Below are positions 13,035 through 61,780 of a stretch of 64,000 bases of DNA, in pieces. Position 1 is the first letter of the stretch. Each line of letters opens with the position of its first letter. The notes under the pieces are model-generated. The model saw only the letters and a list, made by a program, of their open reading frames with translations. It did not search any database and was not told where the DNA came from. The DNA lies in the NCBI GenBank assembly GCA_019057475.1, contig DXJO01000010.1, forward strand, positions 160,001 through 224,000, read 5' to 3'. This stretch comes from Candidatus Thorarchaeota archaeon (GTDB lineage: Archaea; Asgardarchaeota; Thorarchaeia; Thorarchaeales; Thorarchaeaceae). A program made the position numbers and the translations under genes.

Positions 13035-13140
13035 CCGTTCATTGTAAGTTGGACAAACTTTGACAGGGAGTCTTTGTCCTCCCAAGAGCGGCACTGGGAA
13101 TATACTCCTTGAGGTCATTTTCCTGTCATTCAACCTCAAG
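13035..13140 (-). ncRNA. Putative omegaRNA-like guide scaffold inside type A mini-element
   Basis: TATA-like CTTATATG (13168-13161). 8-bp hairpin CTTGAGGT/ACCTCAAG. Outer stem GGAGT/ACTCC encloses TCCCAG-TGCCGCTC-TTGGGA, whose loop is complementary to the terminal GAACGG(T). Confidence 0.55.
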
Positions 13141-13222
13141 AAACAGTGTCATGATTTGAGCATATAAGGTCGTATTCGAAAATGTCCAATATCATCCAAG
13201 TTTTGAGCAGCTGTCTGCAACC
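13035..13222 (-). mobile_element. IS607-like non-autonomous mini-element, type A (188 bp)
   Basis: On the minus strand it starts (G)GGTTGCAGACAGCTGCTCAAAACTTGGATGATATTGGACA and ends TGTCAAAGTTTGTCCAACTTACAATGAACGG. The last 30 nt before the final G match 27889-27918 with 2 mismatches. Removing it at the CC/GG core restores ATG ATT TCA CAA CCC TTT GAG. Confidence 0.85.
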
Positions 13223-13505
13223 CTTTGAGTTTATTCAGCTAATAGTCCTAATCCTGACCGTAGTCTTTTTTCTCTTGGCAATCGAGTACCGAAAGCTCTC
13301 ATTTGCAGTGATCGCATTCGCAATTGGCAATGGTTTCCTGAGCCTTACCTTCTTCGCCCTCGGTGCCCCCTTTGTGGCTGTCTTCAACTTCAGCATGTTC
13401 TCAGGCGCCATCGCAATCCTGTTTCTTGCTGCTATGAGTCTTGAGGCGCCAGCAGAGGAGGAATGTCCGGAGGATGATGATTATTGTGAGGTGAGTACCC
13501 AATGA
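13182..13505 (+). CDS. NuoJ-like subunit, N-terminal half (split J)
   Basis: Three TM helices, FFALGAPFVAVF...GAIAILFL; first gene of the J-K-L-M-N run. Its first 13 codons come from the mini-element left end. Confidence 0.75.
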   Translation: MSNIIQVLSSCLQPFEFIQLIVLILTVVFFLLAIEYRKLSFAVIAFAIGNGFLSLTFFALGAPFVAVFNFSMFSGAIAILFLAAMSLEAPAEEECPEDDDYCEVSTQ

Positions 13506-13768
13506 AACACAAGATTGCAGCAATCATGCTGTCAGTCATCATGGTACTCTTGATTGGCGTGCAACTCATGGACTTCACCGTTTTTTCCTTGAGCGCACCC
13601 ACAGAACCGCTTCTGAATCCCGCAGATTGGGATATCATAGGTCAAAGGGTTGGTGAGCTGATGTGGTCATACCGCGTGGTTGATGTGTTGATTCAGGTCA
13701 CATTGCTTCTTGCAGCAGTGATTGGTGCCTCAGCAATGTTTCGTTCAATGCGGAAGGAGGAGAACTAA
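13502..13768 (+). CDS. NuoJ-like subunit, C-terminal half
   Basis: IGQRVGELMWSYRVVDVLIQVTLLLAAVIGA resembles the NuoJ C-terminal segment; overlaps the upstream gene by 4 nt. Confidence 0.65.
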   Translation: MKHKIAAIMLSVIMVLLIGVQLMDFTVFSLSAPTEPLLNPADWDIIGQRVGELMWSYRVVDVLIQVTLLLAAVIGASAMFRSMRKEEN

Positions 13769-13769
13769 G

Positions 13770-14099
13770 ATGTTCGACATGCTTCAAATCTATCTCATCT
13801 TTGCTCTCATCCTCTACGTCTTGGGCATCTATACATTAGCCAGCGCTAGAAATATGGTCAAGCTCGTTATTGGCATCGAGATCTTGGTCGCGGCGGCAAA
13901 CTTGAACTTCCTTGCTCTGGCCGCGTTCACTGCGGGGCCGAATATTCTTGGACCAATCGACCCCACTGTACAGACCTTCGTTATTCTTTCTATCATAGTC
14001 GGTGGAGTAGTAGCAGCAGTGGCCATGAGCCTTATTGTCAACGCTTACCGCCACTACGGGACACTTGACATCCGTGAACTCAGGAGGTTGAGGGAATGA
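13770..14099 (+). CDS. nuoK: NuoK/MrpC-like subunit
   Basis: LGIYTLASARNMVKLVIGIEILVAAANLNF...YRHYGTLDIRELRRLRE. Confidence 0.85.
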   Translation: MFDMLQIYLIFALILYVLGIYTLASARNMVKLVIGIEILVAAANLNFLALAAFTAGPNILGPIDPTVQTFVILSIIVGGVVAAVAMSLIVNAYRHYGTLDIRELRRLRE

Positions 14100-16096
14100 T
14101 TCTGCCTCTAGAATTGTTAGGCTGGCTTGTGTTTGTAGTGCCAATAGCTGGTGCCCTCTTCACGCCTGTCTTCGGCAAGATTCACCCCACTCTAAGAGAA
14201 GTCATGGCAGTCCTTGTTGGTTTCATCACCGCCTTTCTTGCTCTTGATATGGTTCTGGACATGCTAATTAGCCCCACCTCAATCGATAACAACCTAATCA
14301 CTTGGGTGATAACGGCTGGAATTGAGGTGGAGTTTGGTGTCCTAATCGACCCTCTCAGTGTCCTGTTGGCCTGCATTGCAGGAGGCATTGGTTCACTAAT
14401 CATCCTCTTCAGCGTGGGATACATGACTGGCCATGATGCCGAAGGAAATGTAGTCAAGGACCCAAGCCTGACCCGGTACTACTTCTTCATGCAATTCTTC
14501 GTTGCAGGAATGATCCTCCTAGTAATGGCGAACAACATGCTCATGACCTTCATTGGCTGGGAAATCGTTGGAATGTGCAGCTACGCGCTCATAGGTTTCT
14601 GGCACAACCTAAAGGAACCCAGTCCGGTGCCGGAGTACAAGACGGAGGGCGAGTACAACGCCGCGAGCGGCATGAAGGCATTCATGGTCACGAGGGTTGG
14701 CGACATCGGCCTGCTTGCAGGAATTCTGCTTCTCTTCTTCATCACGGGCACTTTCAACTACACTGAGATGCTCCAAACCGACGCTTGGGCTGTGGGTCTA
14801 TTCCATCTGTTGCCCATTGTGGCGATACTGATCTTTGCCGGCCCAATTGGCAAGAGTGCGCAGTTCCCCCTTCATATATGGCTGCCAGAGGCGATGGCTG
14901 GACCTACGACGGTCAGTGCGCTCATTCATGCAGCAGCGATGGTTAAAGCGGGGGTCTATCTTGTCGCGAGAATCATCCCCATCTTCCTAGAGGTCATGCA
15001 GACCGTGCCAGAAATGATTGTGTTCTTCCAGACGGTCGCGGCCATTGGTGCGTTCACTGCATTCATGGCGGCCACGATGGCCCTCGTACAGGACGAAATC
15101 AAGAAGGTCCTAGCGTATTCCACGGTTTCACAACTAGGATACATGTTCATGGCGCTCGGTGCGACTGGTCTTGTAGCAGAGAGCGTTTCTGCATATGCCG
15201 CCGGAACTTTTCATCTACTTGCTCACGCTTTGTTCAAGGCTCTACTATTTCTCGCCGCTGGGTCCGTCTTACACGCAGTCCAGAGTAAGAAAATGAGCGA
15301 CATGGGCGGAATCAGAAAGGACATGAAGGTCACTTTTGCAGCATTTACGGTCGGAGCACTCTCATTGGCCGGGGTATTCCCGTTCGTTGGCTTCTGGTCG
15401 AAAGAGCTGATTTTCGAGGCGTTATGGCTTGGTGGGCAGTACATCATCTTCCTCATTGCCTTCATAACGGCCATCCTGACGGCGTTTTACACATTCAGAA
15501 TGGTTGGTATCACGTTCTTTGGCGAGAAGTCCGAGCATATCAAGAGTCTGGAGTCACATGGGCATCATATTCACGAAGCACCTCCAACAATGACGATACC
15601 CCTCATCATACTGGCGGTGCTTGCCGCAACTGGTGGCATCCTTGAGATTGTATTCTTCGGATACTTCTCAGGGCTTGAAACCGGCGCACTCACACACTTC
15701 GATTGGGCACATCTTGCACCGTTTGCTCTGGGGATAACTACGATATTCACAATCGCTGTGTGGCTTGTGGGTATCACTCCAGCATATCTCATCTATTGGA
15801 GGAACAAGTACGACCTGAGCAGGTTCAAAGATGGGTTCCTCTACAAGTTCCTGTGGAATCGATGGTACATCAACGCACTCTGGTACAGAATCTTCGTTGA
15901 TGGTTACCTATGGCTGAGCAATGCAATCCATGCTCGCGTGGAATCCGCGCTGTTGGCGTTCAGTGGCGCCTTGAGCGGTGGCATGGATGGCGTATCGCGT
16001 GGTTGGAGACGTACCATGACTGGTGTGCTCAATACCAATGTATTGGGCATGATGGTTGGTATCATCGCGTTTCTATTGATTCTGATATTCTTGTAG
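14096..16096 (+). CDS. nuoL: NADH-quinone oxidoreductase subunit L-like antiporter subunit
   Basis: GWEIVGMCSYALIGFW, KAFMVTRVGD, GKSAQFPLHIWLPEAMAGPTTVSALIHAAAMVKAG, KKVLAYSTVSQLGYM. Confidence 0.93.
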   Translation: MILPLELLGWLVFVVPIAGALFTPVFGKIHPTLREVMAVLVGFITAFLALDMVLDMLISPTSIDNNLITWVITAGIEVEFGVLIDPLSVLLACIAGGIGSLIILFSVGYMTGHDAEGNVVKDPSLTRYYFFMQFFVAGMILLVMANNMLMTFIGWEIVGMCSYALIGFWHNLKEPSPVPEYKTEGEYNAASGMKAFMVTRVGDIGLLAGILLLFFITGTFNYTEMLQTDAWAVGLFHLLPIVAILIFAGPIGKSAQFPLHIWLPEAMAGPTTVSALIHAAAMVKAGVYLVARIIPIFLEVMQTVPEMIVFFQTVAAIGAFTAFMAATMALVQDEIKKVLAYSTVSQLGYMFMALGATGLVAESVSAYAAGTFHLLAHALFKALLFLAAGSVLHAVQSKKMSDMGGIRKDMKVTFAAFTVGALSLAGVFPFVGFWSKELIFEALWLGGQYIIFLIAFITAILTAFYTFRMVGITFFGEKSEHIKSLESHGHHIHEAPPTMTIPLIILAVLAATGGILEIVFFGYFSGLETGALTHFDWAHLAPFALGITTIFTIAVWLVGITPAYLIYWRNKYDLSRFKDGFLYKFLWNRWYINALWYRIFVDGYLWLSNAIHARVESALLAFSGALSGGMDGVSRGWRRTMTGVLNTNVLGMMVGIIAFLLILIFL

Positions 16097-16108
16097 GAGG
16101 TTGGTGAG

Positions 16109-17644
16109 ATGCAAGGAATAATCGATATCCCCATCCCCTCACACGACCTGATGATTCTCACACTGCTCGGCCTCATCTTCGGTGGACTTCTTGTCATGCT
16201 TGCAGGAAAGTGGTCTGAGAAGGGCGCACAGGCACTTGCAAGTCTTGTTCTACTTGGTGGCCTTGCACTGAACGTATTTCTCCTACTCGGTCCTGAGGTG
16301 TGGAGTGGGGGCGAGGTTCTCTATGAGGTAGTCTGGCTTGGGTCCGCAGATTCCCCAATAATGAACATGGGTTTCAGAGGCGACGGTCTCAGTACACCTA
16401 TTGCCATTCTGGTTCTTGGCTTGGGCCTTTTCTCAATCCTCTTCTCGACGGTCTACATGAAGAATCTGAAGCAGCCTGGTCTGTACTACTCCTTAATGGT
16501 CTGGTTCGTCGCCGCCATGGTGGGGGTAATCTACGCAACGGACCTCATGCAGTTCTTCGTGTTCTACGAGCTGATGCTCATACCTGCTTTCGTCTTGGTA
16601 TACGTCTATGGAGTTTCAGAAGATCCTGTCAAGCGGTCGAAGAACGCCCTTCAGTTCTGGATATGGACTGCCGCAGGCGGGATTGTATCTCTCTTTGCGG
16701 TGTTCATGCTGTTCGGTTACGCTGGCACAATGAGCATCTCGACACTGACGTCAGCATCGATTCCTGTCGAGATTGCAAAGTTCATTGGAATCATCTTTCT
16801 CTTGGGATTCGGCATGAAGCTCGGGCTCGTGCCTTTGCACGTGTGGGCGCCTCCTGTCTATGGTGAAGCGCCCATCCCGGTGCTTATTCTCCTCAGTGGA
16901 GCCATGACCAAGACTGCTGCCTATGGTGTGATTAGAATCGTCATCCCCATTCTATCTGAGGGACTCCGCGGTTACGCCTCTGGTCTGATGGTGATATCTC
17001 TCATCACAATGTTCTACGGCGCAATGATGGCAATCTCCCAAAAGGATCTCAAGATGATGCTTGCTTACTCCAGCATAAGCCAGCTTGGATACTTGATGTT
17101 TGGATACTCGACCATGACCTCCATCGGTGTCAATGGTGCAGCATTCCAGCTGATCAATCACGGGATTCTGGCCAGTCTGACATTCTTCTGTGCGGGTGCC
17201 TTGAAGATGAAGACTGGAACAATGAAATTCGACAAGCTGGGGGGTCTTGCTCCCAAGATGCCCGTACTTGCCACAGTCTACATTATTGGCGCACTCGCTC
17301 TTGCTGGCACTCCACCGATGTCAGCATTCGTGGGCGAGTGGATGATATTCGCCGGTGCAGCTGAACGTACTGCATTGGCCGGAGTTGGCCAGCCATTTTA
17401 CTTGGTCATGACTGTTCTTGCTGTAGTGGCTACGGGTCTTACTGCAGCCTACTACCTCTGGTCCATTAGGCGTATTTTCTTCGGACAAGTTCCGGAAGGT
17501 ATGGAGGACGCCAGGGATTCACCGCGGTTAATCTTGGTAATCACAGGACTGATGGCATTCGTCGTTGTGATTCTAGGCGTTTGGCCATGGATGCTTTGGA
17601 GATTCATAGGTCCGGTTCTGACCGGAGTTGTAGGAGGCGGCTGA
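16109..17644 (+). CDS. nuoM: NADH-quinone oxidoreductase subunit M-like antiporter subunit
   Basis: FFVFYELMLIP, KLGLVPLHVW, LAYSSISQLG, NHG, LGGLAPKMP, FVGEW. Confidence 0.88.
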   Translation: MQGIIDIPIPSHDLMILTLLGLIFGGLLVMLAGKWSEKGAQALASLVLLGGLALNVFLLLGPEVWSGGEVLYEVVWLGSADSPIMNMGFRGDGLSTPIAILVLGLGLFSILFSTVYMKNLKQPGLYYSLMVWFVAAMVGVIYATDLMQFFVFYELMLIPAFVLVYVYGVSEDPVKRSKNALQFWIWTAAGGIVSLFAVFMLFGYAGTMSISTLTSASIPVEIAKFIGIIFLLGFGMKLGLVPLHVWAPPVYGEAPIPVLILLSGAMTKTAAYGVIRIVIPILSEGLRGYASGLMVISLITMFYGAMMAISQKDLKMMLAYSSISQLGYLMFGYSTMTSIGVNGAAFQLINHGILASLTFFCAGALKMKTGTMKFDKLGGLAPKMPVLATVYIIGALALAGTPPMSAFVGEWMIFAGAAERTALAGVGQPFYLVMTVLAVVATGLTAAYYLWSIRRIFFGQVPEGMEDARDSPRLILVITGLMAFVVVILGVWPWMLWRFIGPVLTGVVGGG

Positions 17645-17649
17645 GCTAG

Positions 17650-19209: not shown

Positions 19210-19234
19210 ACTACTCTTTGAGTCGCAGCCATAG

Positions 19235-19858: not shown

Positions 19859-20033
19859 TCTCTGACCTCCTTAGCTTCAAGACTGCAACAAGCCAAAGCA
19901 CTAACACCAGTGAGAGTGGCACTGCTGAAAGGGCCCGCATCGGGTCTCCAATTATGAACAGATTGACTCCCGTCATTGACAATATCACGCCCAATATCGC
20001 CAAGACTGGGAGAATGTCTTCATGAATCTCCAT
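19848..20033 (-). CDS. Small 2-TM hypothetical protein
   Basis: MEIHEDILPVLAILGVILS..., two hydrophobic segments; overlaps the start of the next gene. Confidence 0.6.
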   Translation of the reverse strand: MEIHEDILPVLAILGVILSMTGVNLFIIGDPMRALSAVPLSLVLVLWLVAVLKLRRSESAS

Positions 20034-20066
20034 GTGCAAGACACACCAGTTCTCCATTGATTGGGG

Positions 20067-20346
20067 GGCATGCAACAGCTGCCAAGAACTTGTACAATCC
20101 TGGACATTTTGTAGGTGTTTAAAACATACTGTTCAGGATTGAGTGGTGTGGATGTTCAATGCAGATTGCTAGGACCTCCATGCGATTTGGTCGCCGCCAG
20201 TTGGACGGAGACAGAAAACGCCTGTGGAGAGGACGTGAGACTTGTCGCAGATCCAGTAGGATCTGCAGAGCAGACCTCAATGAATCAGGAACCGAACATC
20301 AGTCAAGGACATTGCTGTCCAAGATTGTGCAAGTTTCGGGCAACGG
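20067..20346 (+). mobile_element. IS607-like non-autonomous mini-element, type B (280 bp), with tnpB 3'-end/omegaRNA remnant
   Basis: Left end (G)GGCATGCAACAGCTGCCAAGAACTTGTACAATCCTGGACA; right end TGTCCAAGATTGTGCAAGTTTCGGGCAACGG. A same-length inverted copy lies at 50387-50666. An internal frame reads DLVAASWTETENACGEDVRL...QTSMNQEPN. Confidence 0.88.
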
Positions 20347-20351
20347 CGAGT

Positions 20352-21812: not shown

Positions 21813-21861
21813 GACCGATTAGTTTTCATATCCGGGACATGTTGTTAATGACTGGTGCGCA

Positions 21862-23385
21862 GTGATGACTGAAATAATCTTGGCGTTGGATGTCGGAACC
21901 ACCGGAGTGCGCTCTTTGGTCTTTGACACAGAGGGTGCAGTTCTCGCGCGAGCCTACAAAGAGTTCGAGAGTTCCTATCCCAAGCCCTCCTGGGTGGAGC
22001 AGAATGCGCAAACCTGGTGGGACACTGCCTGCGTAACAACCAAGCAATGCCTCAAAAACCCGGGTGTCAGCGCTGAGAGTATCTGTGGGTTGAGCGTGAC
22101 TAACCAACGTGAAACGGTCGTTCCAATCGACGATGCTGGTAATCCACTACGTAGTGCCATTGTGTGGCAGGACCGTCGAACTGTGCCCCAATGTAACTGG
22201 ATTCGAAATGTCATGTCGCCGGCTGATGTCTATTCAATCACTGGGCTCACCATTGATCCGTACTTCACCGCTCCCAAGATTCTCTGGATAAAGGAGAACG
22301 AGCCTGAGGTCTTCAGAAAGGCTTGGAAGTTTCTCTTGGTTCACGATTTCATGGTCTTCAAGCTCACTGGTAAAACAATTACTGACCATTCCAATGCAAG
22401 CAGAACGATGCTTTTCGACATCAAGAACGCAGGGTGGTCTGAAAAGATGCTCAACGCATTTGACATCCCGCGTGAGAAGCTCCCTGACCCTCTGCAGTCT
22501 GGTACCCCCGCAGGAGAAGTAACTGCGAAGGCAGCCAACGATTGTGGGCTTAAGGAAGGCACTCCTGTGGTTGCGGGAGGCGGAGACCAGCAGTGTGCGG
22601 CGCTAGGAGTGGGTGTGGTTCGCGAGGGCTCAATCAAGTCAACTACAGGAACAGGTACTTTCCTGCTTGCCTACTCTGACACTCCCAGATTCGATAGCAG
22701 AATACGCGTGCTCTGCAGCCGCCATGTTGTCCCGGGCGCCTTTGTTGTGGAGGCAAGCATGTTCACCACGGGCTCAGCTCTCAGGTGGTTTCGCGATAAC
22801 CTTGGTGCGGAGGAGTGCAATCTTGCCAAAGAGCGGGGCGTTGATCCCTATGAGGTCATGTCGGAAGGGGCGGGCGCGATTCCAGCTGGTTCTGAAGGTG
22901 TCATCCACCTGCCGCATTTCGCAGGGGCTGGTGCACCCTACTGGAATCCACACGCGCGTGGTGTGTTTGCCGGTCTTGCCCTTGGCCACACTAGAAAGCA
23001 TCTCATGCGATCTATCTTGGAGGGCGTTTCTTATGAGATTAGAACCAACCTCGAGATCATGAACGATATTGGGATTCCTGCCTCAGAGGTTCGCGTGACT
23101 GGAGGCGCTGCCAGAAGTCAAGTGTGGATGCAGATACAGGCAGATGTGCTTGGAATGCCAGTAATCCGAACCGAGATGGAAGAGGCTACCGCTCTAGGAG
23201 CCGCAATCCTTGCCTGCAAAGGGGTGGGTTTGTTTGACTCGATGGTAGCAGCCGCTGACAGCATGGTGAAACCATTGGATCCACTTAAACCGCAAGAAAC
23301 GAATCGCAACGTCTACGCCGAAGGATTTGCGCGGTTCAAGCAGCTCTATGCTTCAATATCCAACATCGAGTGGCCTAGCCATTAG
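21862..23385 (+). CDS. FGGY-family carbohydrate kinase (xylulokinase/glycerol kinase-like)
   Basis: LDVGTTG, TNQRET, AIVWQDRR, GGGDQQ, TGTG, GGAARS, TALGAA. Confidence 0.93.
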   Translation: MMTEIILALDVGTTGVRSLVFDTEGAVLARAYKEFESSYPKPSWVEQNAQTWWDTACVTTKQCLKNPGVSAESICGLSVTNQRETVVPIDDAGNPLRSAIVWQDRRTVPQCNWIRNVMSPADVYSITGLTIDPYFTAPKILWIKENEPEVFRKAWKFLLVHDFMVFKLTGKTITDHSNASRTMLFDIKNAGWSEKMLNAFDIPREKLPDPLQSGTPAGEVTAKAANDCGLKEGTPVVAGGGDQQCAALGVGVVREGSIKSTTGTGTFLLAYSDTPRFDSRIRVLCSRHVVPGAFVVEASMFTTGSALRWFRDNLGAEECNLAKERGVDPYEVMSEGAGAIPAGSEGVIHLPHFAGAGAPYWNPHARGVFAGLALGHTRKHLMRSILEGVSYEIRTNLEIMNDIGIPASEVRVTGGAARSQVWMQIQADVLGMPVIRTEMEEATALGAAILACKGVGLFDSMVAAADSMVKPLDPLKPQETNRNVYAEGFARFKQLYASISNIEWPSH

Positions 23386-23594
23386 GTCGAGTAGATAGCT
23401 AGCTTGTTACCCTTGTCCAAGACAAGTATCTTCACGTCTGGATCATTGGATATCCACTCGTCGACTGCAGCTTGTGGGTCCTCCGCCTTGTCCATGTGCG
23501 CTTTTTCTACGGTATCTATGTCGAGATTTGTGAACATCTGAATGCCTCAAAGGACTTCTAAGAGATCAGCGAATTTGTGCGCTTTGTGCTCGTA
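23382..23594 (-). pseudogene. Diverged orphan copy of the larA-family gene 3' end
   Basis: Translates YEHKAHKFADLLEVL*GIQMFTNLD...DEWISNDPDVKILVLDKGNKLAIYST*. Ungapped match to 24260-24472 with one in-frame stop. Confidence 0.92.
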
Positions 23595-24259: not shown

Positions 24260-25546
24260 CTAGGTCGAGTAGATAGCTAGCTTGTTGCCCTTGTCCAAAA
24301 CAAGTATCTTCACGTCTGGGTCATTTGATATCCACTCATCGACCACAGCTTGTGGATTCTCCGTCTTGTCTAGGTGAGCCGATTCTACGGTTTCTCTATC
24401 GAGCTCTGTGAACATCTGAATGCTTGAGAGGTTTTTCAGAAGCTCAGCGAACTTGTACGCCTTGTGCTCGTACAGATGATATTTCCCGCTTATCGACTCT
24501 ATCACAGTGTCAAGTGGAGCAGTCAACTTGTTGTAGAAATTCTCCATTGCACTCTCAGGTGCTACACCATCTCTGCACTCAGCAAGAAACAGAATCTCTC
24601 CTCCTTCTGACACTGCATTCTTAGTGAGTTCAAGTGCTCTCTGGGCATGATACAGGCTCTTGTCTTGGGGGTAACCTCCTGGGGACACCACAATGCGTGG
24701 TCTGGCGGTTACAGTGAAGCTTGCCGTTTCATCGAGCACCTTAATGCCATCAGATATCACTGGCTCCATGCGGCCGGCGCCAGCCCACACTACTTTGTCG
24801 CCATTCGATACGGTTGAGAGAGTGAAGATCGTAGCACCCTTGGTTATCATCTCAGCCGCTTCTCTCATGTCATCCGCGAGTGGGTTGGTTCGCCTTGCTG
24901 GGTCTGGGTGGTATGGATGCGTTCCGAAGGTCGACTTGGGGTCAAGTGCCATTGAATGATTGGCTTCGATTGATGCAAACCCGCACACTCCTGGCAAGAA
25001 GTCCTTGAGAGCATTGGAGTATCCACTGAAGTAATGGGCCTTCATATCAGCAAGAGGAACGTACACATTGTGACCGACGGCAGCGGCGTTAACAATGACT
25101 GGCGTACCTCTGCTTGTTTTCCCCAAGTCAGCCATGTCCGGTTCTTGGCAATCATGAATCTTCACTTTGTAGTTCTCAAGCCCGGCATCAGCAGACGCTC
25201 GTTTGATCATGTCCACGATTTCTAGGTTCCCGGGGTGTTCTACTTCGTGTGACCCGGTTGTGACTATGTACTGGATTCTGTGTGCATACTTCAGTTTTGG
25301 GGCAACCGAGCTGAGGAGTGCCCAATGAGGCTCGTCTCTAGTATGGTCCTCCACCAAAACGCAGACACTCCTGCCCTTGACGATATCCGTCAGAGCGGGT
25401 CCGTATGGGTTCGCAAGGACCCTGTTGAGTTCCTCTAGACTATTTTCTGCAGTCCTGGCTTTCTTCGGCGCGACTGTTCCAGCGAGGTTCTTTTCAGGAA
25501 TCTGCAAGTCAACAGTTCCTTCGCCGTAATTTAGAGTCACTTTCAT
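24260..25546 (-). CDS. LarA-family (nickel-pincer-dependent racemase/epimerase, DUF2088) protein
   Basis: LNYG start, VEDHTR, TGSH, GKTSRGTPV, HYFSGYS...K..LPGV, SPGGYPQDKSLYHAQRAL. Confidence 0.88.
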   Translation of the reverse strand: MKVTLNYGEGTVDLQIPEKNLAGTVAPKKARTAENSLEELNRVLANPYGPALTDIVKGRSVCVLVEDHTRDEPHWALLSSVAPKLKYAHRIQYIVTTGSHEVEHPGNLEIVDMIKRASADAGLENYKVKIHDCQEPDMADLGKTSRGTPVIVNAAAVGHNVYVPLADMKAHYFSGYSNALKDFLPGVCGFASIEANHSMALDPKSTFGTHPYHPDPARRTNPLADDMREAAEMITKGATIFTLSTVSNGDKVVWAGAGRMEPVISDGIKVLDETASFTVTARPRIVVSPGGYPQDKSLYHAQRALELTKNAVSEGGEILFLAECRDGVAPESAMENFYNKLTAPLDTVIESISGKYHLYEHKAYKFAELLKNLSSIQMFTELDRETVESAHLDKTENPQAVVDEWISNDPDVKILVLDKGNKLAIYST

Positions 25547-25587
25547 CCTGGTTGCCTCAACAACTGGATGGAACAGTCTTTGAAAAG

Positions 25588-27919
25588 GGTTGCCAATAGC
25601 TCCAAGAATCTTGGACAGACTTGGACACTTATTAGATAGTCGTCTGATGAAACACTTTTTGTGGAGTTTGAATTCTATTGCTGTTAGCTATTATAGCCCT
25701 AATTCTGTATGAGTTAATATTCTTCATCTAGGACCACGTTTTGAGGTAGTGGTTGATGAAGTCAGAAAAGCGGCGTCGTCCCCGCTCGTGCAAGACACCC
25801 GAGGCATCGAAACAGAAGACAATGGACGCCAACTATTATGGCTCTTCATCAACTACTTACCTTGTAGAGTCCTTTGCCCTGAACTCCTGTCAACGCGAAG
25901 TAGCACGAAAGGGAAGGGGCAGAGAACCCGACCCCGCGTACAGACGAGACAGGGATAGTTGGACACAGCAGCTAGTCAGTGTAGCAAGAAAGTGTGGGAG
26001 AAAGGTCGACGACATAGACCTAGCGACTCTCACTCTACATTTTGATAACTATGTCAAGGTTGTCAATCTCATCCTCTCACGGATATACCGGACGGATGGC
26101 CGCGCACAGACACTTGGGGAATCACTCTCGAAGTATAGAGGCAGAGCTTACACTCTGCTAAGAGAGCAGAGAGACCTTTGCTATCAACACAATGATGAAT
26201 ACAAAGAACTAGTGTATGAACGACTTCATCGAAATGCGCTTGAGCATGCCGGCAGAACACTGTTGGCTGATTGGACGCGGAGGCAACTCTTCAATGCTGC
26301 GATCAATCTGCTTCACGGGTCACATGATGATGCTCTACGACTTCTGAGAAGAAAGAATATTCCCTCGGACTTGATTCGAAGATTGCGGGACAGTTGCAAT
26401 GCAGTGAAGAAGAATGGTTCCGGATATCATTACGCTCTTAGTGTTCTAAGGCAGATTCGTCTTACTCTTGATAGTCATATTCTAGATACTCTCAGTATCA
26501 AGATCAGTTGGCGTGGAAGACAGAGGAAGAAGGTGTCTTCCTTACTTGCAAAGGGGTCTCCAGACTTTCAGTATGTCGAGAACCTTGTAGAGAACGAGCT
26601 CCGGAGCTGGGCAAAGAATGGATACTCTTTCACCGTCCCGCAACTAAGAAGCCTCAGTCTTGATTTCAGCGCAAGCACTGAGAACTCCATAGGTCAGGGA
26701 TACTGGTTCACTATTGATTCAGAGAGAGAGAATGAGATCATGCTGCACCTTAAGCTTCCTCCGGGGATAGATGGAAGAGAACACAGTGATTCCCCCTACA
26801 AGTCAAAGACCCTGACCTTCAGATTCCTTGACTGGTTGCCAAGAGCTGCGGCAAAAGATGCTGATAAGGCAAACAGAGCTGAGGAGACCGGTGACTATCA
26901 TCGAGGTGACCAGTTGAGGTTCAGAGCTGCAAAGTTCTCAGACATGCATGAACAACTCATGAACACCATTCAGTTCCAGCAGGTGGTTCATAGACTATCA
27001 AGGCTGAAACAAAGGAAGAGGAGTGATTCTACAGAGATTGCAGACCTAGAAGCAAACGCCCAGAGACTCAAGAGCTCCCGACGGAGTGCTCCTCCAAGAC
27101 TTCTCTTGAGAGGGCAGAGGGTCATCCTCCAGATTCCCTTTCTCTCGCCCAACGGTACAGTGAGCTCCAGAGTCCTAGGAGAGAGAGAATACACGACCAA
27201 GGCAGGAGCTGATAGGGGATTAAGAGTACCAGTTGCCCTCTCGGTTGAGAAAGACACCGAGTATGTAGACCTGTACATATCAGTAGAGTCCCTCATTGCG
27301 AAGAGGATGACACTGAGGAAGAATGCGTCGGTCCTACAGTCAGAGGTGGACAGGAGAAGAAACAACTGGGAGCGAAAGCGGCCCGGACAGACTTATCCCC
27401 GGTTCCTCTTCAAGAAGATGAGGCATCTGGAAGCCACATGGAAGAAGGTACGTCGTCTCGACCGCGAGATTGCTCGCATTATTGCATCAAAGACAGTGTG
27501 GTTCTGTGAAGGCCATCGGGTGAAGAAGGTGTTCTTCGAGGACCTGCGGAGCTTCCAAGCTAAAGGTGGTCTTAGGGACCTGTCGTGGTCGCTGAATACG
27601 AACCTGTGGGGAAAGATCATCGACACGGTCAGATACATGCGAGAGTCTCTTGGTCACTCACCCTATAGTGTGTGGACTGTGAACCCGCGGTACACTAGCC
27701 AGACATGCCATGTCTGTGGCGAGAGAGGTGTCAGGGTTGAGAATGAAACCTCGAAGACAAAGAAGAAGGGAGGAGAGTACTTCTATTGCGAAAAGTGTGG
27801 TTCTCATTTTCACGCTGATATAAACGCAGCAAGAAACATAATTCATGTTCAACCAAGATCCAGTGCCGTTCCTGGACGGACAGCTTGATGTCCAAGTTTG
27901 TCCAAATTACAATGAACGA
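25588..27919 (+). mobile_element. IS607-like element carrying only a large tnpB-like gene (no tnpA)
   Basis: Left end (G)GGTTGCCAATAGCTCCAAGAATCTTGGACAGACTTGGACA and right end TGTCCAAGTTTGTCCAAATTACAATGAACG(A) align with the four mini-elements. Confidence 0.85.
25756..27888 (+). CDS. tnpB: Large TnpB/Cas12f-like RNA-guided RuvC nuclease (~710 aa)
   Basis: RuvC-I GADRG, RuvC-II FFEDL, VNPRYTSQTCHVCG...FYCEKCG zinc finger, RuvC-III HADINAARNI. Confidence 0.88.
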   Translation: MKSEKRRRPRSCKTPEASKQKTMDANYYGSSSTTYLVESFALNSCQREVARKGRGREPDPAYRRDRDSWTQQLVSVARKCGRKVDDIDLATLTLHFDNYVKVVNLILSRIYRTDGRAQTLGESLSKYRGRAYTLLREQRDLCYQHNDEYKELVYERLHRNALEHAGRTLLADWTRRQLFNAAINLLHGSHDDALRLLRRKNIPSDLIRRLRDSCNAVKKNGSGYHYALSVLRQIRLTLDSHILDTLSIKISWRGRQRKKVSSLLAKGSPDFQYVENLVENELRSWAKNGYSFTVPQLRSLSLDFSASTENSIGQGYWFTIDSERENEIMLHLKLPPGIDGREHSDSPYKSKTLTFRFLDWLPRAAAKDADKANRAEETGDYHRGDQLRFRAAKFSDMHEQLMNTIQFQQVVHRLSRLKQRKRSDSTEIADLEANAQRLKSSRRSAPPRLLLRGQRVILQIPFLSPNGTVSSRVLGEREYTTKAGADRGLRVPVALSVEKDTEYVDLYISVESLIAKRMTLRKNASVLQSEVDRRRNNWERKRPGQTYPRFLFKKMRHLEATWKKVRRLDREIARIIASKTVWFCEGHRVKKVFFEDLRSFQAKGGLRDLSWSLNTNLWGKIIDTVRYMRESLGHSPYSVWTVNPRYTSQTCHVCGERGVRVENETSKTKKKGGEYFYCEKCGSHFHADINAARNIIHVQPRSSAVPGRTA

Positions 27920-27981
27920 TATCAGTTTTGGTGTATCACTTGTGCAGAATGCTTATCCGTTCTTGATGTTACAGCAGAAGC

Positions 27982-50386: not shown

Positions 50387-50666
50387 CCGTTGCCAGAAAC
50401 TTGTACAATCCTGGACATCAATGTCCTTGACTGATGTTCGGTTCCTGATTCATTGAGGTCTGCTCTGCAGATCCTGCTGAATCTGCGACAAGTCTCACGT
50501 CCTCTCCACAGGCGTTTTCTGTCTCCATCCAACTGGCGGCGACCAAACTACATGGAGGCCCTAGCAATCAGCATTGAACATCCACACCACTCAATCCTGA
50601 ACAGTATGTTATAACCCCTTACAAAATGTTTAAGATTGTACAAGTTCTTAGCAGCTGTTGTATGCC
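50387..50666 (-). mobile_element. IS607-like mini-element type B (280 bp), second copy
   Basis: Reverse-complement copy of 20067-20346, bounded by CC/GG at both ends. Removal restores GAGGT-N9-ATG CCC TTC TTT AAG. Confidence 0.9.
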
Positions 50667-51456
50667 CTTCTTTAAGCACAATGGACTCAAACTCCACTAT
50701 GTTGATGAAGCACCCACAGAGCCTGCAGCGGCGAGACCAGCGCTTCTCTTTATCCATGGCGCTGGCGCTTCGCATATGCTTTGGACTCCTCAGGTCAAGC
50801 ATTTCAAACAGACCCACCGAGTCATCGCATTAAATCTATCAGGTCACGCGGAGTCAGAAGCCAAAGAGGAAGATCCCGAAATCGAAACTCAATTTGCTCC
50901 CGAGCTTGCATCGCTGATTCAACATCTATCTCTTGACATCTTTGTTCTGATTGGACATTCCATGGGCGGGGGCGTAGCCATGTCGTACGTCCTGCAAGAT
51001 GGAGTCCGCATGCCTCGAGCACTAGTTTTGGTGAGCACCTCTTCTGACCTTGACATGAGAAAGCGTGGCCCTGGCGTTGCAAAGGAAGCTATCGAGATTA
51101 ACCTGTTCCTTCTTCAGAGTGCGCTCAAGCGGGACAAATCAATTGAATATGAGCTAAAACGTGCGGGGGCCAAGGTGAGCCTGACCAACCCTTGGATAAT
51201 GCAGAGAGACCTTCGTGCCTGTGACCATTTCAACATCTCCGACAGAGTAGGGGAAATCACAATTCCTGCATTTGTAATCGTTGGCGAACACGATGACCTC
51301 ATCCCGCCCTCGATAGCCAAGCAGCTAGAGGAAGCCCTTCCGCGGGCTGATATCGCTGTCGTCAGAGGTGCAAATCATTCACCCATGATTGAACAACCTG
51401 AGGAGTTCAACGGGCTCCTTTCCAAGTTCCTGAAGTGGGTGGAGTCGAATCCATAG
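50662..51456 (+). CDS. Alpha/beta-fold hydrolase
   Basis: FIHGAG, GHSMGG nucleophile elbow, GEHD, NH. The ATG lies inside the mini-element left end. Confidence 0.92.
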   Translation: MPFFKHNGLKLHYVDEAPTEPAAARPALLFIHGAGASHMLWTPQVKHFKQTHRVIALNLSGHAESEAKEEDPEIETQFAPELASLIQHLSLDIFVLIGHSMGGGVAMSYVLQDGVRMPRALVLVSTSSDLDMRKRGPGVAKEAIEINLFLLQSALKRDKSIEYELKRAGAKVSLTNPWIMQRDLRACDHFNISDRVGEITIPAFVIVGEHDDLIPPSIAKQLEEALPRADIAVVRGANHSPMIEQPEEFNGLLSKFLKWVESNP

Positions 51457-54100: not shown

Positions 54101-54155
54101 AAAGAATAATCAACCCCCTGTTGTCTGTTTTGCCGAAGGGCTCAAGCGAGGTGAA

Positions 54156-55626: not shown

Positions 55627-55776
55627 CGAATCGCCTCTTGCTAGGTTCTCGATTTCCAGCTTGCTTTGATTACAGTTTCGATGGAGGACAGGGGGCGCTA
55701 GTGGTACGATATGTCGCCTCACAACGCTTAACTAGTAAAGCTTACCATATTCTAAAACTGGTTGGAAGTGTGCCTG

Positions 55777-56112
55777 ATGACAGTTGAACAGGCTAGGAGA
55801 GTGGCTCAGAAGCATTACGACCTGCTTCAGCAGGATGATATGGCCAAATGGGTGGACACCCTCACTAATGAAAACAAAAAAGTGGTGCTGACCAAAGGCA
55901 GCTCGCCCAGCATGTGGTGGGATCTAGGTCGGCGTTATTTCGAGCAATACGGCGTCCACTACAAGTTCAACCGCGTGGAAGAAAAGAAAGAGGACTACTG
56001 CAAGCTCTTCTTCACAAGGTATAACGCAGACGGTTCTGTGCGTGGAATGCCTGTGTCTATCCACTTGAGAAAGGTAGATGACAAGTGGAAAGTAGAGCAG
56101 GCATCCCACTGA
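55777..56112 (+). CDS. Hypothetical protein (NTF2-like fold possible)
   Basis: Helical N-terminus; ends LRKVDDKWKVE. Confidence 0.6.
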   Translation: MTVEQARRVAQKHYDLLQQDDMAKWVDTLTNENKKVVLTKGSSPSMWWDLGRRYFEQYGVHYKFNRVEEKKEDYCKLFFTRYNADGSVRGMPVSIHLRKVDDKWKVEQASH

Positions 56113-56160
56113 TTCCCCTACCGCAACAGACCTAAATACGCAGCGCACAACACCGCAACC

Positions 56161-57375: not shown

Positions 57376-57411
57376 TTCAGATAGCGAGAATGAGCGTCGG
57401 AGCTGTAGATT

Positions 57412-58461
57412 TTGGCAGATGACAGCATGCATCTTGGAGTTTGGGAGAAGTACCTCGCAGTCTGGGTCGCCCTCTGTATGGCCATTGGCCTCTTGCTGTC
57501 CCAAGCCTTCCCCGGTTTGAGCATAGCGATTAACAGCTGGCAGTACATGGGCATCTCAATACCTATTGGCATATGCCTGTTCCTCATGATTTACCCTGCC
57601 CTCTTGAATATCCAACTAACAGAGATTAGGAAAATCACCAGAGCACCCAAGCCTATAGTCCTCACTATCCTCTCCAACTGGATACTAGCCCCAATAGTTA
57701 CAGTGGTTCTAGCCAATATGTTCCTAGCAGGACATGATCAGCTCATAGTATCCCTGATACTGCTGGGGGCAAGCCCATGCACAGCTATGGTCCTAGTATG
57801 GGGCAAGATGGCTGAGGGCAACCAAGAGCAGAACCTCATCAACACCAGTCTGAACACCGTGACCATCATGATCTTGTACGTGCCCATCGTTACGCTACTG
57901 ACGGGCATTCAAAATATCCCGATCGATTGGATGATGCTCGTGATATCCGTGGTCGTGTTCATAGGCATCCCCATGGTCTTGGGCTACCTTTCAAAGAGAT
58001 ACCTTACCAGCACGCGGGGTGAGGAATGGTTCCAAGGCGTGTACCGACCAGCCGTGGGCAAGGTTTCAGTGATTGCCCTCCTGACGATACTTATCGTATT
58101 GTTTAGCCTGAATGGCAATGTCCTCATCCAGCATCCGGACCTCATACTGCTCGTTTCGATTCCCCTGCTATTAGGATTCTTCATAGTCGTTGGCATCAAT
58201 CTGCTGGTCACGAAGTTCGCTAGCCTCCGGTACGAGGAAGGCATAATTACCGTGATTATTGGTTCTTCAAGCCACTTCGAGATAGCCATCGCGACAGCCA
58301 TCGCCCTCTACGGGCTGGGCTCTCAAGCCGCTCTCGGCACCACGATGGGTCTCTTCTGGGAGGTCCCCATCATGCTAGGCTTGGTCTACCTTGGCAAAAG
58401 GCTCAACAAGAGAGGATTCTGGAATAAAGAAACGGTAGATTCCATTAGTACTATCTCTTAG
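57412..58461 (+). CDS. acr3: Acr3 arsenite efflux transporter
   Basis: EKYL..WV, MIYP, NW, PCTAMVLVW, SSHFEIAIATAI, EVP.M. Confidence 0.92.
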   Translation: MADDSMHLGVWEKYLAVWVALCMAIGLLLSQAFPGLSIAINSWQYMGISIPIGICLFLMIYPALLNIQLTEIRKITRAPKPIVLTILSNWILAPIVTVVLANMFLAGHDQLIVSLILLGASPCTAMVLVWGKMAEGNQEQNLINTSLNTVTIMILYVPIVTLLTGIQNIPIDWMMLVISVVVFIGIPMVLGYLSKRYLTSTRGEEWFQGVYRPAVGKVSVIALLTILIVLFSLNGNVLIQHPDLILLVSIPLLLGFFIVVGINLLVTKFASLRYEEGIITVIIGSSSHFEIAIATAIALYGLGSQAALGTTMGLFWEVPIMLGLVYLGKRLNKRGFWNKETVDSISTIS

Positions 58462-58500
58462 CCAAGAAGCTTTCCGCTTCAGGAACCGGGATGGCGTTTC

Positions 58501-58836
58501 TCAGGACGCTTTGACTTTCCTCAGGAGCTCGACAGCCTTGTCATCACCGTGTTTGACACGATAGGCGAGCACACCTGCTCTGATAATAGCGTTTTTCTGT
58601 CCCTCAGGATTATCGGGGTCATAGTGGCTGATGAATAACTTGCATGGAAAATCACTGCAGAGACCACAGTGATCCACTCCCTTTCCTTCATGGCATTTGT
58701 AGACCTTGCACCTACCCCACCAAGGCCTGCCTTGGGTTGCCGCACAGCCAAGACATGAATGTTCGTTTTCGCCTTTGTAAGAGGGGCAGTCGCTACATAA
58801 CGCTCCACATATGGAGAAGTGAACGTCGTTTCTCAT
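58501..58836 (-). CDS. DUF3795-like Cys-rich protein
   Basis: CGALCSDC, CLGC, C.VYKC, HCGLCSDFPC. Confidence 0.8.
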   Translation of the reverse strand: MRNDVHFSICGALCSDCPSYKGENEHSCLGCAATQGRPWWGRCKVYKCHEGKGVDHCGLCSDFPCKLFISHYDPDNPEGQKNAIIRAGVLAYRVKHGDDKAVELLRKVKAS

Positions 58837-58849
58837 GGCGGTTCTTCGT

Positions 58850-58895
58850 GAACGTGTTCAAATAAAATACGTGCTCTTCCTTAGAACACGTGTTC
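58850..58895. promoter_or_regulatory. Palindromic candidate operator between divergent genes
   Basis: Perfect 12-bp palindrome GAACACGTGTTC (58884-58895), related sites at 58850 and ~58867, and TATA-like TTTATA at ~58917. Confidence 0.4.
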
Positions 58896-58955
58896 CAAGA
58901 AGAGAGTGTTATCTTATTTATAGCGGATTCTCCACTGGTGATAAAGGGATAGGCA

Positions 58956-60536
58956 ATGACAGCCGACGAACGAGAGAGGAAGTATGTCCTAGCGGTGGAC
59001 CATGGCACTTCAGCCATGAAGGTAGCCCTCGCAAACATGAGTGGCGACATTCTCGCCTTTGAAACGGAAAAGACGCCTTTGTACCTCTTGGAAGGTGGTG
59101 GTGCAGAACAGGACCCAGATGAGTGGTGGGCAGCTCTTATCGCCTGTGCTAAGCGGATTGTTGACAGGAATATTGTTCCTGTCGATGACATTATTGCAGT
59201 CTGCAACTCGAGTCAATGGTCCGGTACTGTGGCTGTCGACGCGAATGGCAATCACCTCATGAATGCGATAATCTGGATGGACTCTCGAGGAGCTCCATAC
59301 ATCAGCAAGTACCTACGAGGGATTGTAAACATCCAAGGATACGGCATCTTGAACGTTCTCAAATGGATTCGCAAGACTGGGGGGATTCCCGCCAGCGCTG
59401 GCAAGGACCCAATCGCGCACATCTTGTTCCTGAAGCACGAGCGCCCGGAGATCTATGAAAAAACGCACGTGTTCCTGGAGCCAAAAGATTTCTTGAACCT
59501 GAAGTTCACTGGGAAATTCGCAGCCTCCTATGACTCCATCATGCTTCACTGGCTGGTGAATACCCAGGACATCTGGAATATCCATTACGATGAAGCGCTC
59601 ATCAAGAAATTACGCATAGATAGAAACAAATTACCCCCTTTGCAGAGTTCCATTGATGTACTTGGAGTTGTATCTGGGGACGTTGCAGACCTGATTGGTA
59701 TCAATCGAAACGTGCAGGTCGTAACGGGGTCTCCTGACCTTCAATCTGCTATGATTGGCTCGGGCGCAGTCAAGGATTACGAGGGTCATATCTACATTGG
59801 CACTAGTAGCTGGATACTCTGCCATGTACCTTTCAAGAAGACAGACATCTCCCACAACATGGCTTCAATTCCCTCTACGATTCCCGGCAGATATTTCGTT
59901 GTCAATGAGCAGGAGTCTGCGGGGGCATGCTTAACATTTCTAAGAGACAACATCTTCCACACCGACGACAAGACACGCTATGGCAATCCAGAGGTCTACA
60001 GGGAATTCGATAAGATAGTGGAAGGGGTACCCCCAGGAAGTAACAAGCTAATCTTCACTCCATGGTTGTACGGTGAGCGCACTCCTGTGGAGAATCACAC
60101 AGTACGTGGAGGATTTCACAATCTTTCTCTGCCGGTGGATCGGCCAAATATGATTCGGGCGGTGTTCGAGGGCATTGCTTACAATAGTCGATGGCTGCTG
60201 CAGCTTGTTGAGAAGTTCATTAAGAGGAAGATGGACCCGCTAAATATCATTGGGGGTGGAGCACAGTCCGACATCTGGTGCCAGATATATGCAGATGTCC
60301 TGAACAGGACCATCCGACAGGTCAAGGACCCGATATACGCAAATGCGAGAGGCGCTGCACTCATTGCATCAGTGGGCTTGGGGTACTGCACTTTCGACGA
60401 AATCTGTCATTTGGTCCAGTTCTCGAATGAGTTCAATCCGAATCCCGATAACAGGGCACTCTATGATGAACTCTTTGCTGAGTTTCTGCAGCTATACAAG
60501 AGCAATGAACAGATCTACAAGCGATTGAATGCGTGA
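58956..60536 (+). CDS. FGGY-family carbohydrate kinase
   Basis: VDHGTS, EQDP..WW, IIWMDSR, YIGTSSW, PWLYGERTP, GGGAQS. Confidence 0.92.
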   Translation: MTADERERKYVLAVDHGTSAMKVALANMSGDILAFETEKTPLYLLEGGGAEQDPDEWWAALIACAKRIVDRNIVPVDDIIAVCNSSQWSGTVAVDANGNHLMNAIIWMDSRGAPYISKYLRGIVNIQGYGILNVLKWIRKTGGIPASAGKDPIAHILFLKHERPEIYEKTHVFLEPKDFLNLKFTGKFAASYDSIMLHWLVNTQDIWNIHYDEALIKKLRIDRNKLPPLQSSIDVLGVVSGDVADLIGINRNVQVVTGSPDLQSAMIGSGAVKDYEGHIYIGTSSWILCHVPFKKTDISHNMASIPSTIPGRYFVVNEQESAGACLTFLRDNIFHTDDKTRYGNPEVYREFDKIVEGVPPGSNKLIFTPWLYGERTPVENHTVRGGFHNLSLPVDRPNMIRAVFEGIAYNSRWLLQLVEKFIKRKMDPLNIIGGGAQSDIWCQIYADVLNRTIRQVKDPIYANARGAALIASVGLGYCTFDEICHLVQFSNEFNPNPDNRALYDELFAEFLQLYKSNEQIYKRLNA

Positions 60537-60559
60537 CAGTAGAGCAAGTCACTGCCGGT

Positions 60560-61558
60560 CTACTCGCCATGGTATCTTCGTAGAACCCTTAGCGCACGCA
60601 GAGTGATCCACTTCGATGGCTTATGCTTAACCTCGATGTCACACAGCATTTTGCCATTGAAGCTGTCCTTGAGAAGCCACTTGCCATCCGCTGGACGATT
60701 CGCAATTACTAGGTCGATTGTGTCCTGCATTCTCTCATCATAGATTCCAAGACCAGTCAGCAAATCAAGAACCTCAAGAGCATCCGACTGGTAGAACATA
60801 GGGAATCCAAATCTCTTCCATCCCGCCTTGTCCTTGCGACTCCCATCCGGAGCGCGCAGATACTTGTAGATTCTGTTCTCCAAGATTATCTCCACCTCTT
60901 GGTCGATAATCTCTCTAATCCTCTTCGACCGTTTCTTCCTCGGGATAGAAGCAAGTCCCCTGAGAAGCTTGACTCCACCCATGTAGCAGTTCTCTGGGAA
61001 CACTCTTGATCTGTTAATAGGATAGGCTCTGCACTTCCAACCTCCAACATCATCAGAATGGTATTCGATCTGGAACTCAATCAATCGTTTCACTCTGGGG
61101 TCTTCAAGGTAGCCGAAGTGTATCATGAAGTAGAGAATATTGCCATCAAGACAGCATCCATCTTTGACAACACTGGCCCGACCCCGTTCGGTCTTTGGCG
61201 CCTCAGTCAGGAAGTGCCCAGAATCCCTTTGAAACCCAAAGATGGATTCAATGCCATGCTCAATGGCCTCGGTTCTCTTTGCACCCAATTCAGCCATAAT
61301 CAGAAGACTGTGTGTACTGGCAGTGTACTTGGGCAAGTACATGTTGTCTGCGCTACCCCAGTGGCCCTCTGATTTTTGCGCACTGAGAATTGTCTTCACG
61401 CAGGGCGACTTCATAATGGCTTTCTGAGCCGCAACTACGTCTGGATGGTCCCTATCCATGTCCTTGAGATGCTGCAATGCCCAGAAACGGATGCTTGGGT
61501 CAGAGGGCTCATGGAGCCAATCGATGACTCCCTCTTCAACGAACTCAACCCACTTCAT
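60560..61558 (-). CDS. Prenyltransferase/squalene-cyclase-like alpha/alpha toroid protein
   Basis: Q-x-x-x-G-x-W repeats (QKSEGHW, QRDSGHF, DVGGW, ADGKW), FGFPMFY..D.LE, KPSKWITLRAL. Confidence 0.7.
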   Translation of the reverse strand: MKWVEFVEEGVIDWLHEPSDPSIRFWALQHLKDMDRDHPDVVAAQKAIMKSPCVKTILSAQKSEGHWGSADNMYLPKYTASTHSLLIMAELGAKRTEAIEHGIESIFGFQRDSGHFLTEAPKTERGRASVVKDGCCLDGNILYFMIHFGYLEDPRVKRLIEFQIEYHSDDVGGWKCRAYPINRSRVFPENCYMGGVKLLRGLASIPRKKRSKRIREIIDQEVEIILENRIYKYLRAPDGSRKDKAGWKRFGFPMFYQSDALEVLDLLTGLGIYDERMQDTIDLVIANRPADGKWLLKDSFNGKMLCDIEVKHKPSKWITLRALRVLRRYHGE

Positions 61559-61591
61559 GTCCTAGCATAAAGTGGCTCTGAGCTATTAAGG

Positions 61592-61780
61592 GGTTGCAAA
61601 CAGCTGCTGTAAAGTTGGACATATCTGGACAATTCCATTGTGGGCTTTATATAGACCAATACGACATTGATCTCTGAGGAATATGACACACCTGTGAAGG
61701 TTCCTCACGGAGTAGTCCAGTGCCGTTTTCTGGACGTACTAGACTTCGGTGTCCAACTTCGTACAACTTACAATGAACGG
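61592..61780 (+). mobile_element. IS607-like mini-element type A (189 bp), second copy
   Basis: Left end (G)GGTTGCAAACAGCTGCTGTAAAGTTGGACATATCTGGACA; right end TGTCCAACTTCGTACAACTTACAATGAACGG; same internal layout as 13035-13222. Confidence 0.85.
61675..61780 (+). ncRNA. Putative omegaRNA-like guide scaffold
   Basis: TTTATATA at 61646. Hairpin TGAGGAA/TTCCTCA. GTCCAG-TGCCGTTTT-CTGGAC lies inside CGGAGT/ACTTCG, and the loop is complementary to the terminal AACGG(T). Confidence 0.55.

Follow-up and report, generated by a model that had tools for sequence, protein, structure and literature searches.

Elements in the window

We analyzed a window of 64,000 nucleotides from a Candidatus Thorarchaeota archaeon (GenBank assembly GCA_019057475.1, contig DXJO01000010.1, positions 160,001 to 224,000 of the forward strand). 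It holds two gene-less elements that we call A minis, two longer gene-less elements (B minis) and one element whose sole gene encodes an enlarged, "giant" TnpB nuclease (Table 1). Our main subject is the A minis, which we consider to be probable homing hitch-hikers on both the TnpA recombinase and the TnpB nuclease of an IS607-family transposon system.

Five elements with a common, ungapped left end of ∼41 nt had been marked in the first-pass annotation; their positions held, and all five are IS607-type insertions. A right end finishing in AACG(G) had also been described, and we found AACGG in four elements and AACGA in the nuclease-bearing copy. At both ends, TTG(G/T)ACA motifs lie 10 nt apart and in inverted orientation, forming the subterminal repeats and imperfect inverted repeat expected of IS607, a family that targets GGG without duplication and has this end anatomy (PMC6188088). 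The proposed genome search, run with profiles of the left and right ends, gave ∼80 matches for each end across the 3.3 Mb of the genome, whereas a shuffled genome gave none. Pairing these matches yielded 17 A minis (187 to 190 bp), ∼30 right ends of the B type and a small number of longer elements. The five elements had been taken as one system; they belong instead to two, one made up of the A minis and the giant TnpB and the other of the B minis and an ordinary TnpB.

Table 1. Positions of the elements and of their predicted RNA features in the window (position 1 is its first base; helices are named as in the text)
Feature	Position	Strand	Remarks
A13, A mini, predicted stand-alone omegaRNA gene	13035..13223	-	Left end GGG 13223-13221; right end AACGG 13039-13035; empty site in four congeneric genomes; RNA model 93 bits
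A13 TATA-like box	13161..13168	-	TATA-to-right-end distance fixed across genera
A13 predicted RNA scaffold	13034..13138	-	P1 13138/13117; loop TGACAGG x CCTGTCA 13128/13067; P4 13109/13071; hairpin P2 13098; tail pseudoknot; guide from ∼13033; putatively transcribed
A61, A mini, predicted stand-alone omegaRNA gene	61591..61780	+	Empty site in two congeneric genomes; RNA model 107 bits
A61 TATA box	61646..61653	+	Predicted transcription start ∼61675
A61 predicted RNA scaffold	61675..61781	+	P1 61675-82/61700-07; PK1 61685-89/61749-53; P4 61708-13/61743-48; P2 61716-35; P2-loop:tail pseudoknot with 61775-81; guide from 61782
Non-autonomous IS607-type element, giant tnpB as sole gene	25587..27919	+	Recent insertion; site empty in 5/5 congeneric genomes
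Giant TnpB, 711 aa	25753..27888	+	Likely start ATG 25756; RuvC D487/E596/D689; C4 zinc finger; TnpB/Cas12f-like fold, enlarged helical regions
Promoter-proximal self-target	25681..25699	+	Candidate target-adjacent motif CTGTT, then 10/12 match to 5' guide; ∼30 nt upstream of TATA-like box at 25714
Second scaffold copy in first tnpB codons	25770..25844	+	P2-like hairpin 25770-25785; tail 25819-25830; from 25831, short guide that matches the tnpB promoter
Short cis omegaRNA scaffold, tnpB 3' end and right end	27859..27920	+	P2, P3, tail pseudoknot 6/7 paired; without P1, P4 and PK1
Host DNA of ∼32 bp adjoining the giant's right end	27919..27950		Inverted relative to empty site; cis guide of this copy not continuous with left-end target site
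B mini	20066..20346	+	Internal deletion of ordinary IS607 tnpB element C18:14981-13644; site empty in two relatives; no A-RNA model match
B mini	50387..50667	-	93% identical to other B copy

A putative promoter and a conserved predicted RNA fold in the A minis

Both A minis carry a TATA-like box in a common register (61646, and 13168 on the minus strand). Downstream of it comes a structured region that in its 3' half matches the end of the nuclease gene, much as had been described; the reported 54-nt spacing from the left end to the box is, however, a local feature. In other genera the lengths of the A minis cluster at 179 to 180, 187 to 191, 207 to 211 and 219 to 220 bp, the left spacer changing in steps of ∼10 bp, and the distance from TATA to right end is 131 to 137 nt in 41 of 42 scored copies. 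Similar boxes stand upstream of tRNA genes in this genome. With the usual archaeal spacing between TATA box and start site, transcription of A61 is predicted to begin at ∼61675, and this predicted start is the first base of helix P1.

The predicted fold comprises P1, a pseudoknot formed by the P1 loop (PK1), P4, a hairpin (P2) and a 7-bp pairing between the P2 loop and the RNA tail. This last pairing includes the first base past the terminal GG, so that the scaffold, which had been expected to end at the right end, runs one base beyond it; that base was T or C in all 62 flanks scored. When we built the suggested covariance model, P4, P2 and PK1 were found to covary across genera, with two-sided changes numbering 11 and 7 in P4, 12 and 4 in P2, and 2 in PK1, a level that was reached by no shuffle in a control that ignores relatedness. 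P1 was 45% paired on the MAFFT alignment, where its register is off, and pairs once re-anchored. The P2-loop:tail pseudoknot was fully paired in 39/46 minis, as in most copies at the 3' and 5' ends of the giant genes, which form it with different sequences. Among 39 recent mini copies, the RNA region had diverged less (0.02 to 0.07) than the left end (0.15). Of 87 genomes of the class, 56 had matches to the covariance model; the other Asgard families sampled had none. An Rfam search of the window returned no match.

These data bear on whether the A minis are ordinary miniature inverted-repeat transposable elements, their RNA-like features being leftovers or DNA-level constraint, neither expressed nor used. 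Promoters at left ends are normal, the 5' part of the mini resembles the tnpB leader (GAGG followed by TGACAC), and the B minis, like the minis of two genomes (G002 and G011), are simple deletions. Against this, two-sided base changes occur in three helices that no parent copy has, and the distance from TATA box to right end is fixed while the left spacer varies. We regard this explanation as quite improbable. As described for stand-alone omegaRNA elements, the A minis are gene-less and mobile and retain both ends and the scaffold. Their hairpin and pseudoknot in common with the giant gene, the covariation across genera and the co-occurrence presented below fit the proposal that they are promoter-bearing guide-RNA genes for the giant TnpB, and we infer that they are expressed and act in trans.

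The giant TnpB and its own scaffold

The only gene within the five elements had been read as a RuvC nuclease of ∼710 residues, in agreement with the 711-aa open reading frame (ORF) found here. Its three RuvC residues and C4 zinc finger are invariant in 55 homologues, almost all of them from Thorarchaeota; dN/dS is ∼0.19 against homologues that are 92% identical, and the predicted fold is TnpB/Cas12f-like. The protein scored 60.7 of the 100 required by the curated TnpB family NF040570 and 23.7 of the 350 required by NF038280, and since it stays below every curated TnpB and Cas12 cut-off, it apparently belongs to a divergent clade. It was said to be the one nuclease of the system; the genome in fact has three full-length giants (C42, C53 and C54) and two fragments. 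As a TnpB, it would be expected to cut DNA under RNA guidance and in dependence on a target-adjacent motif (TAM).

The 3' ends of the giant genes form P2 and the same pseudoknot as the minis, with compensatory changes of their own. The covarying 7-bp loop:tail pairing lies at the right end, with the guide taken from the flank, as in other TnpB scaffolds with a 3' pseudoknot (PMC10097598). P4 and PK1 are present in 40/46 minis versus 1/30 giant genes, so that three helices of the mini (P1, P4 and PK1) have no counterpart in the gene's own copy. Because PK1 takes the strand that forms P3 in the genes, the mini extension probably replaces P3. TnpB normally trims its RNA out of mRNA (PMC10278001); a primary mini transcript may need an extra 5' fold, and the additional helices probably stabilize it. 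Of the 40 genomes that have high-scoring minis, 31 yielded a giant, versus 10 of the 47 that lack them, these genomes being kin rather than independent samples.

Alternatively, the true guide for cutting could be the extended RNA of the minis, with the short scaffolds, cis and 5', confined to binding or repression and with nuclease and guide genes obligately split. P1, P4 and PK1 covary across genera and are absent from 29/30 gene 3' ends; many giants lack a left end and some have degraded right ends; and RNA-model matches occur in every giant-bearing genome, a count not independent of the gene's own end. The cis 3' copies nevertheless retain the covarying pseudoknot, the plain deletion minis of G002 and G011 carry the short scaffold only, and ten genomes have giants without high-scoring minis. 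We consider obligate splitting unlikely. The related proposal that the giant cuts only, or much better, with the extended RNA, making up a system of separately mobile nuclease and guide units, together with a Cas1-fold partner and an mRNA guide for self-repression, is likewise doubtful; if true, it would mean that Asgard archaea had taken a path from TnpB toward a Cas12-like multi-guide system independently and without arrays.

A putative self-guide in the 5' end of the tnpB mRNA

A third scaffold version lies in the first codons of the giant genes, where a covarying P2-like hairpin pairs through its loop with a downstream tail (24 loci). The 12 bases after this tail match the gene's own promoter at a mean of 11.1/12 positions, versus 7.8 for shuffled promoters. 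The match extends over 11 to 16 nt, is over by position 16 and is seen in 0/24 loci at position 17, which suggests binding without cutting; the guide of the 5' copy, being short and non-cutting, may act to repress transcription from the tnpB promoter. Upstream of the self-targets we found T-G-N-T, with T at position -4 in 23/24 loci. The putative TAM has G(-3) and T(-1) in common with the GGGT insertion site, which it overlaps, and it is probably K-G-N-T. At two loci (L006 and L047) a TAM-like sequence, TGGT, also precedes the self-guide in its DNA template.

Mobility and the parent element

In congeneric genomes, the insertion sites of the two A minis, one B mini and the giant occur precisely empty, and six further minis of relatives have matching empty sites in the window's genome. 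The target is (A)GGG|T, with GGG|T rejoined precisely in the empty sites and no target-site duplication. Mobility at a GG core in the IS607 manner, as given in the first-pass annotation, is thus supported, and in ∼20 loci a cognate serine-recombinase gene lies 66 to 73 nt past the common left end. The search for tnpA that had been called for located it in this genome (C53, frameshifted) and intact in relatives. The C53 element, 8.6 kb long, lies between rpl37ae and a Brix gene, at a site that is empty in relatives, and it comprises a left end, the frameshifted IS607 tnpA, an 1822-aa gene on the opposite strand, giant tnpB and a right end. As seen in such loci, the parent is an ∼8.6-kb IS607 element with a left end, serine recombinase tnpA, a divergent Cas1/PD-(D/E)XK gene of ∼1800 aa, tnpB of ∼710 aa and a right end; intact composite parents exist in other genera (G008 and G003). 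The TnpA of an intact parent, a serine recombinase with an N-terminal helix-turn-helix, scored 175.6 bits against NF033518, above the cut-off, and the copies in the window are non-autonomous. Judged by sequence, the tnpB-only derivatives, such as the window copy, and the gene-less minis of 180 to 220 bp carry the same ends as this parent, and the transposon system is restricted to Thorarchaeota.

The large Cas1-like gene stands head-to-head with giant tnpB in ∼19 loci and is absent from the window copy. In the predicted structure of its product, residues 1 to 230 have a Cas1-like fold, and a PD-(D/E)XK-type domain comes next. The top 12 structural matches were all Cas1 (best Z 12.7, root mean square deviation 3.9, 177 aligned residues), and Foldseek gave Cas1 at E ∼0.02; searches of Pfam and NCBIfam gave no match for this protein, and atlas matches were weak.

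Several further features of these elements were observed. In the 8.6-kb element (L006:670-700 and 9289-9301), the first 11 bases after the left-end GGG equal the host flank past the right end, as if overwritten by target DNA. At the inverted host segment beside the giant (27919-27950), the opposite strand of the empty site reads GAACGG, resembling a right end. At G000:C42:98206-99239 (L262), an A mini is preceded by an additional left end of the A type, a gene for a VapB-like antitoxin and a PIN-domain gene, possibly forming a composite mini with a toxin-antitoxin pair. A second TnpB family of 570 to 600 aa (L086 to L089, on C9, C18, C42 and C54 of this genome) is head-to-head with the same Cas1-like partner in 3/4 loci, and all four loci have a TCAC(T/A)CA-like downstream motif, as in PMC10691335. 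We rejected these ∼580-aa TnpBs as the nuclease of the A minis, as their loci have no RNA-model match.

The 1,338-bp C18 element encodes an ordinary TnpB of ∼400 aa with intact catalytic motifs, and its first 112 and last 168 bases are matched by the B minis (99/112 and 159/168 identical). By this identity the 280-bp B minis are internal deletion derivatives that keep the promoter and RNA end of the C18 element. They had been counted among the giant's elements; the match of their ends to C18 and the lack of any A-RNA model match led us to reject them as guides for the giant. End motifs are common to A and B elements because both are IS607-type.

Among neighboring genes, A13 apparently lies within the 5' part of a nuoJ-like gene (13182-13505), and an in-frame ATG in its left end gives a 107-aa ORF. 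A gene of the RuBisCO large-chain family (61802-63175) adjoins A61. Near the giant, a 212-bp duplicate (23383-23594 versus 24261-24472, 84% identical) repeats the end of the adjoining LarA-like gene, and at 4957-7814 UDP-glucose/GDP-mannose dehydrogenase genes form a tandem pair, ∼70 to 85% identical in stretches.

Guides from host flanks and homing in trans

The first-pass annotation likened the minis to a dispersed CRISPR array in which each insertion creates a new guide, here understood as immunity against foreign DNA. One nuclease family does have many different guides, and a Cas1-fold partner travels with the nuclease. Yet every traceable flank is host chromosome and is seen as an empty site in relatives, so that the guides are host flanking DNA rather than sequences of foreign origin. 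We found no perfect second target of the guides within the genome, and viral contigs contained neither the mini motif nor a full-length giant, individual guides not having been searched there. Insertions are mainly intergenic (3/16 in ORFs versus 73% for random GGGT sites). The minis are dispersed, each with its own ends and TATA box, and nearby pairs are separate insertions rather than clustered repeats and spacers; tandem minis in G024 and G008, considered as nascent arrays, were rejected as such, being separate complete elements. An immune array is therefore largely refuted, and we judge it highly improbable.

Since each guide is the host flank of its own insertion, the only natural target is that site in its unoccupied form, which points to homing or retention in trans. 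Retention by TnpB after TnpA excision has been shown for the IS607 element CboIStron (bioRxiv 10.1101/2023.11.20.567912), and gene-less elements whose stand-alone omegaRNAs act in trans have been published (PMC10691335; Meers et al., bioRxiv 10.1101/2023.03.14.532601). In light of both, we read the A minis as probable homing hitch-hikers. TnpA would excise and insert them in trans, each would be transcribed from its own promoter, and the giant TnpB would load the mini RNA through the P2 hairpin and tail pseudoknot in common. The loaded TnpB would then cut the empty allele at a TAM of probably K-G-N-T, and repair from the occupied chromosome copy would restore or spread the mini, as with CboIStron. 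The extra 5' helices, in place of P3 of the cis copy, would give a stable primary transcript, and the scaffold copy in the first codons would hold tnpB expression in check. The B minis would do likewise for a separate, ordinary TnpB.

Several observations weigh against homing by the A minis. The covariation control takes no account of phylogeny, the minis were chosen partly by their P4 motif, and DNA sites for TnpA may account for some of the conservation at the right end. No giant was found in nine genomes with minis (83 to 94% complete; three rechecked with a profile), and an intact cognate tnpA is absent from the assembly of the window's genome. Position -4 is T in the self-targets, G in insertion sites and C in the element's own end. 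Finally, a 67-bp paralogue of a mini's flank persists empty in the mini's own genome (G000:C40:402-468 and C40:76521-76587), with AGGGT and a 15/16 guide match. With regard to the assembly, contigs break off (C2, C9, C35, C52, C56 and others) at many B ends and at one more type of left end, and an intact tnpA may be in unassembled repeats.

The uncut near-perfect target on C40 would also suit mini RNAs that load TnpB mainly as decoys, as DNA-binding regulators or as guides for the Cas1-like partner in integration or toxicity, as would the short, repressive-type guide encoded by the family and the Cas1 and PD-(D/E)XK folds of the partner. However, the flank after insertion has no upstream target motif and hence offers no standing target, and the distribution of the partner departs from that of the minis (three genomes have the partner without minis, and several have minis without the partner). 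We consider such roles very unlikely as the main one, and prefer homing in trans.

Comparison with known systems

With CboIStron and other IS607 TnpA(S)-TnpB-omegaRNA elements, the present system shares a serine recombinase, a GG core with a preferred GGG target, the absence of duplication, helically spaced end motifs, and a scaffold at the right end with its guide from flanking DNA. It differs in the size of TnpB (∼710 versus ∼400 aa), the 1800-aa Cas1-like passenger, the lack of an intron, a cis scaffold of ∼62 nt that runs one base past the GG, and the second scaffold at the mRNA 5' end. The A minis resemble the published stand-alone omegaRNAs and omegaRNA-bearing palindrome-associated transposable elements (PATEs) as gene-less mobile elements that would encode a guide RNA used in trans. 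Unlike those, they have IS607 rather than IS200/IS605 ends, and the mini RNA has conserved 5' helices and a pseudoknot of its own beyond the parent's scaffold, kept across genera.

Asgard TnpBs linked to a Cas1 homologue (aCas1) appear as Cas1H-Asgard-1 and -2 in the relevant passages of PMC10691335, which cites Makarova et al. 2020. The giant, a large TnpB that adjoins a Cas1-fold gene in ∼19 loci, would fit these groups together with its partner. Those passages propose aCas1 as the transposase and describe neither minis nor a self-guide; here the IS607 ends, the GG core and the dedicated serine recombinase argue that TnpA, not aCas1, moves the elements. As far as we could locate the literature, no concrete predictions of scaffold and TAM had been made before for any large Asgard TnpB linked to aCas1. 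The best matches of the giant in sequence and fold were to Cas12f and other type V effectors (NF049972, 62.7 bits; Foldseek E 1e-8), although it lies far under the family cut-offs, is transposon-borne and has no CRISPR array beside its gene.

The tracr-L RNA reportedly autorepresses Cas9 through a natural guide that is short and directed at the Cas9 promoter. The giant's self-guide also matches its own promoter, with the difference that it is contained, along with its scaffold, in the first codons of the tnpB mRNA; our literature search on TnpB guides against the own promoter found nothing specific. One TnpB family thus has three natural scaffold versions: the short copy in cis, the copy in the mRNA leader that targets the promoter, and the extended version encoded by a stand-alone gene. 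A comparison of the three would make testable which scaffold parts are needed for cutting, how guide length switches between cutting and repression, and what stand-alone omegaRNAs do, a role called unknown in PMC10691335. The A/B split, the ∼10-bp length steps and the mini-specific RNA fold are new in the present analysis; the concepts of stand-alone omegaRNAs and of aCas1-linked Asgard TnpBs were already published, and the system is a variant of IS607/TnpB with stand-alone omegaRNAs.

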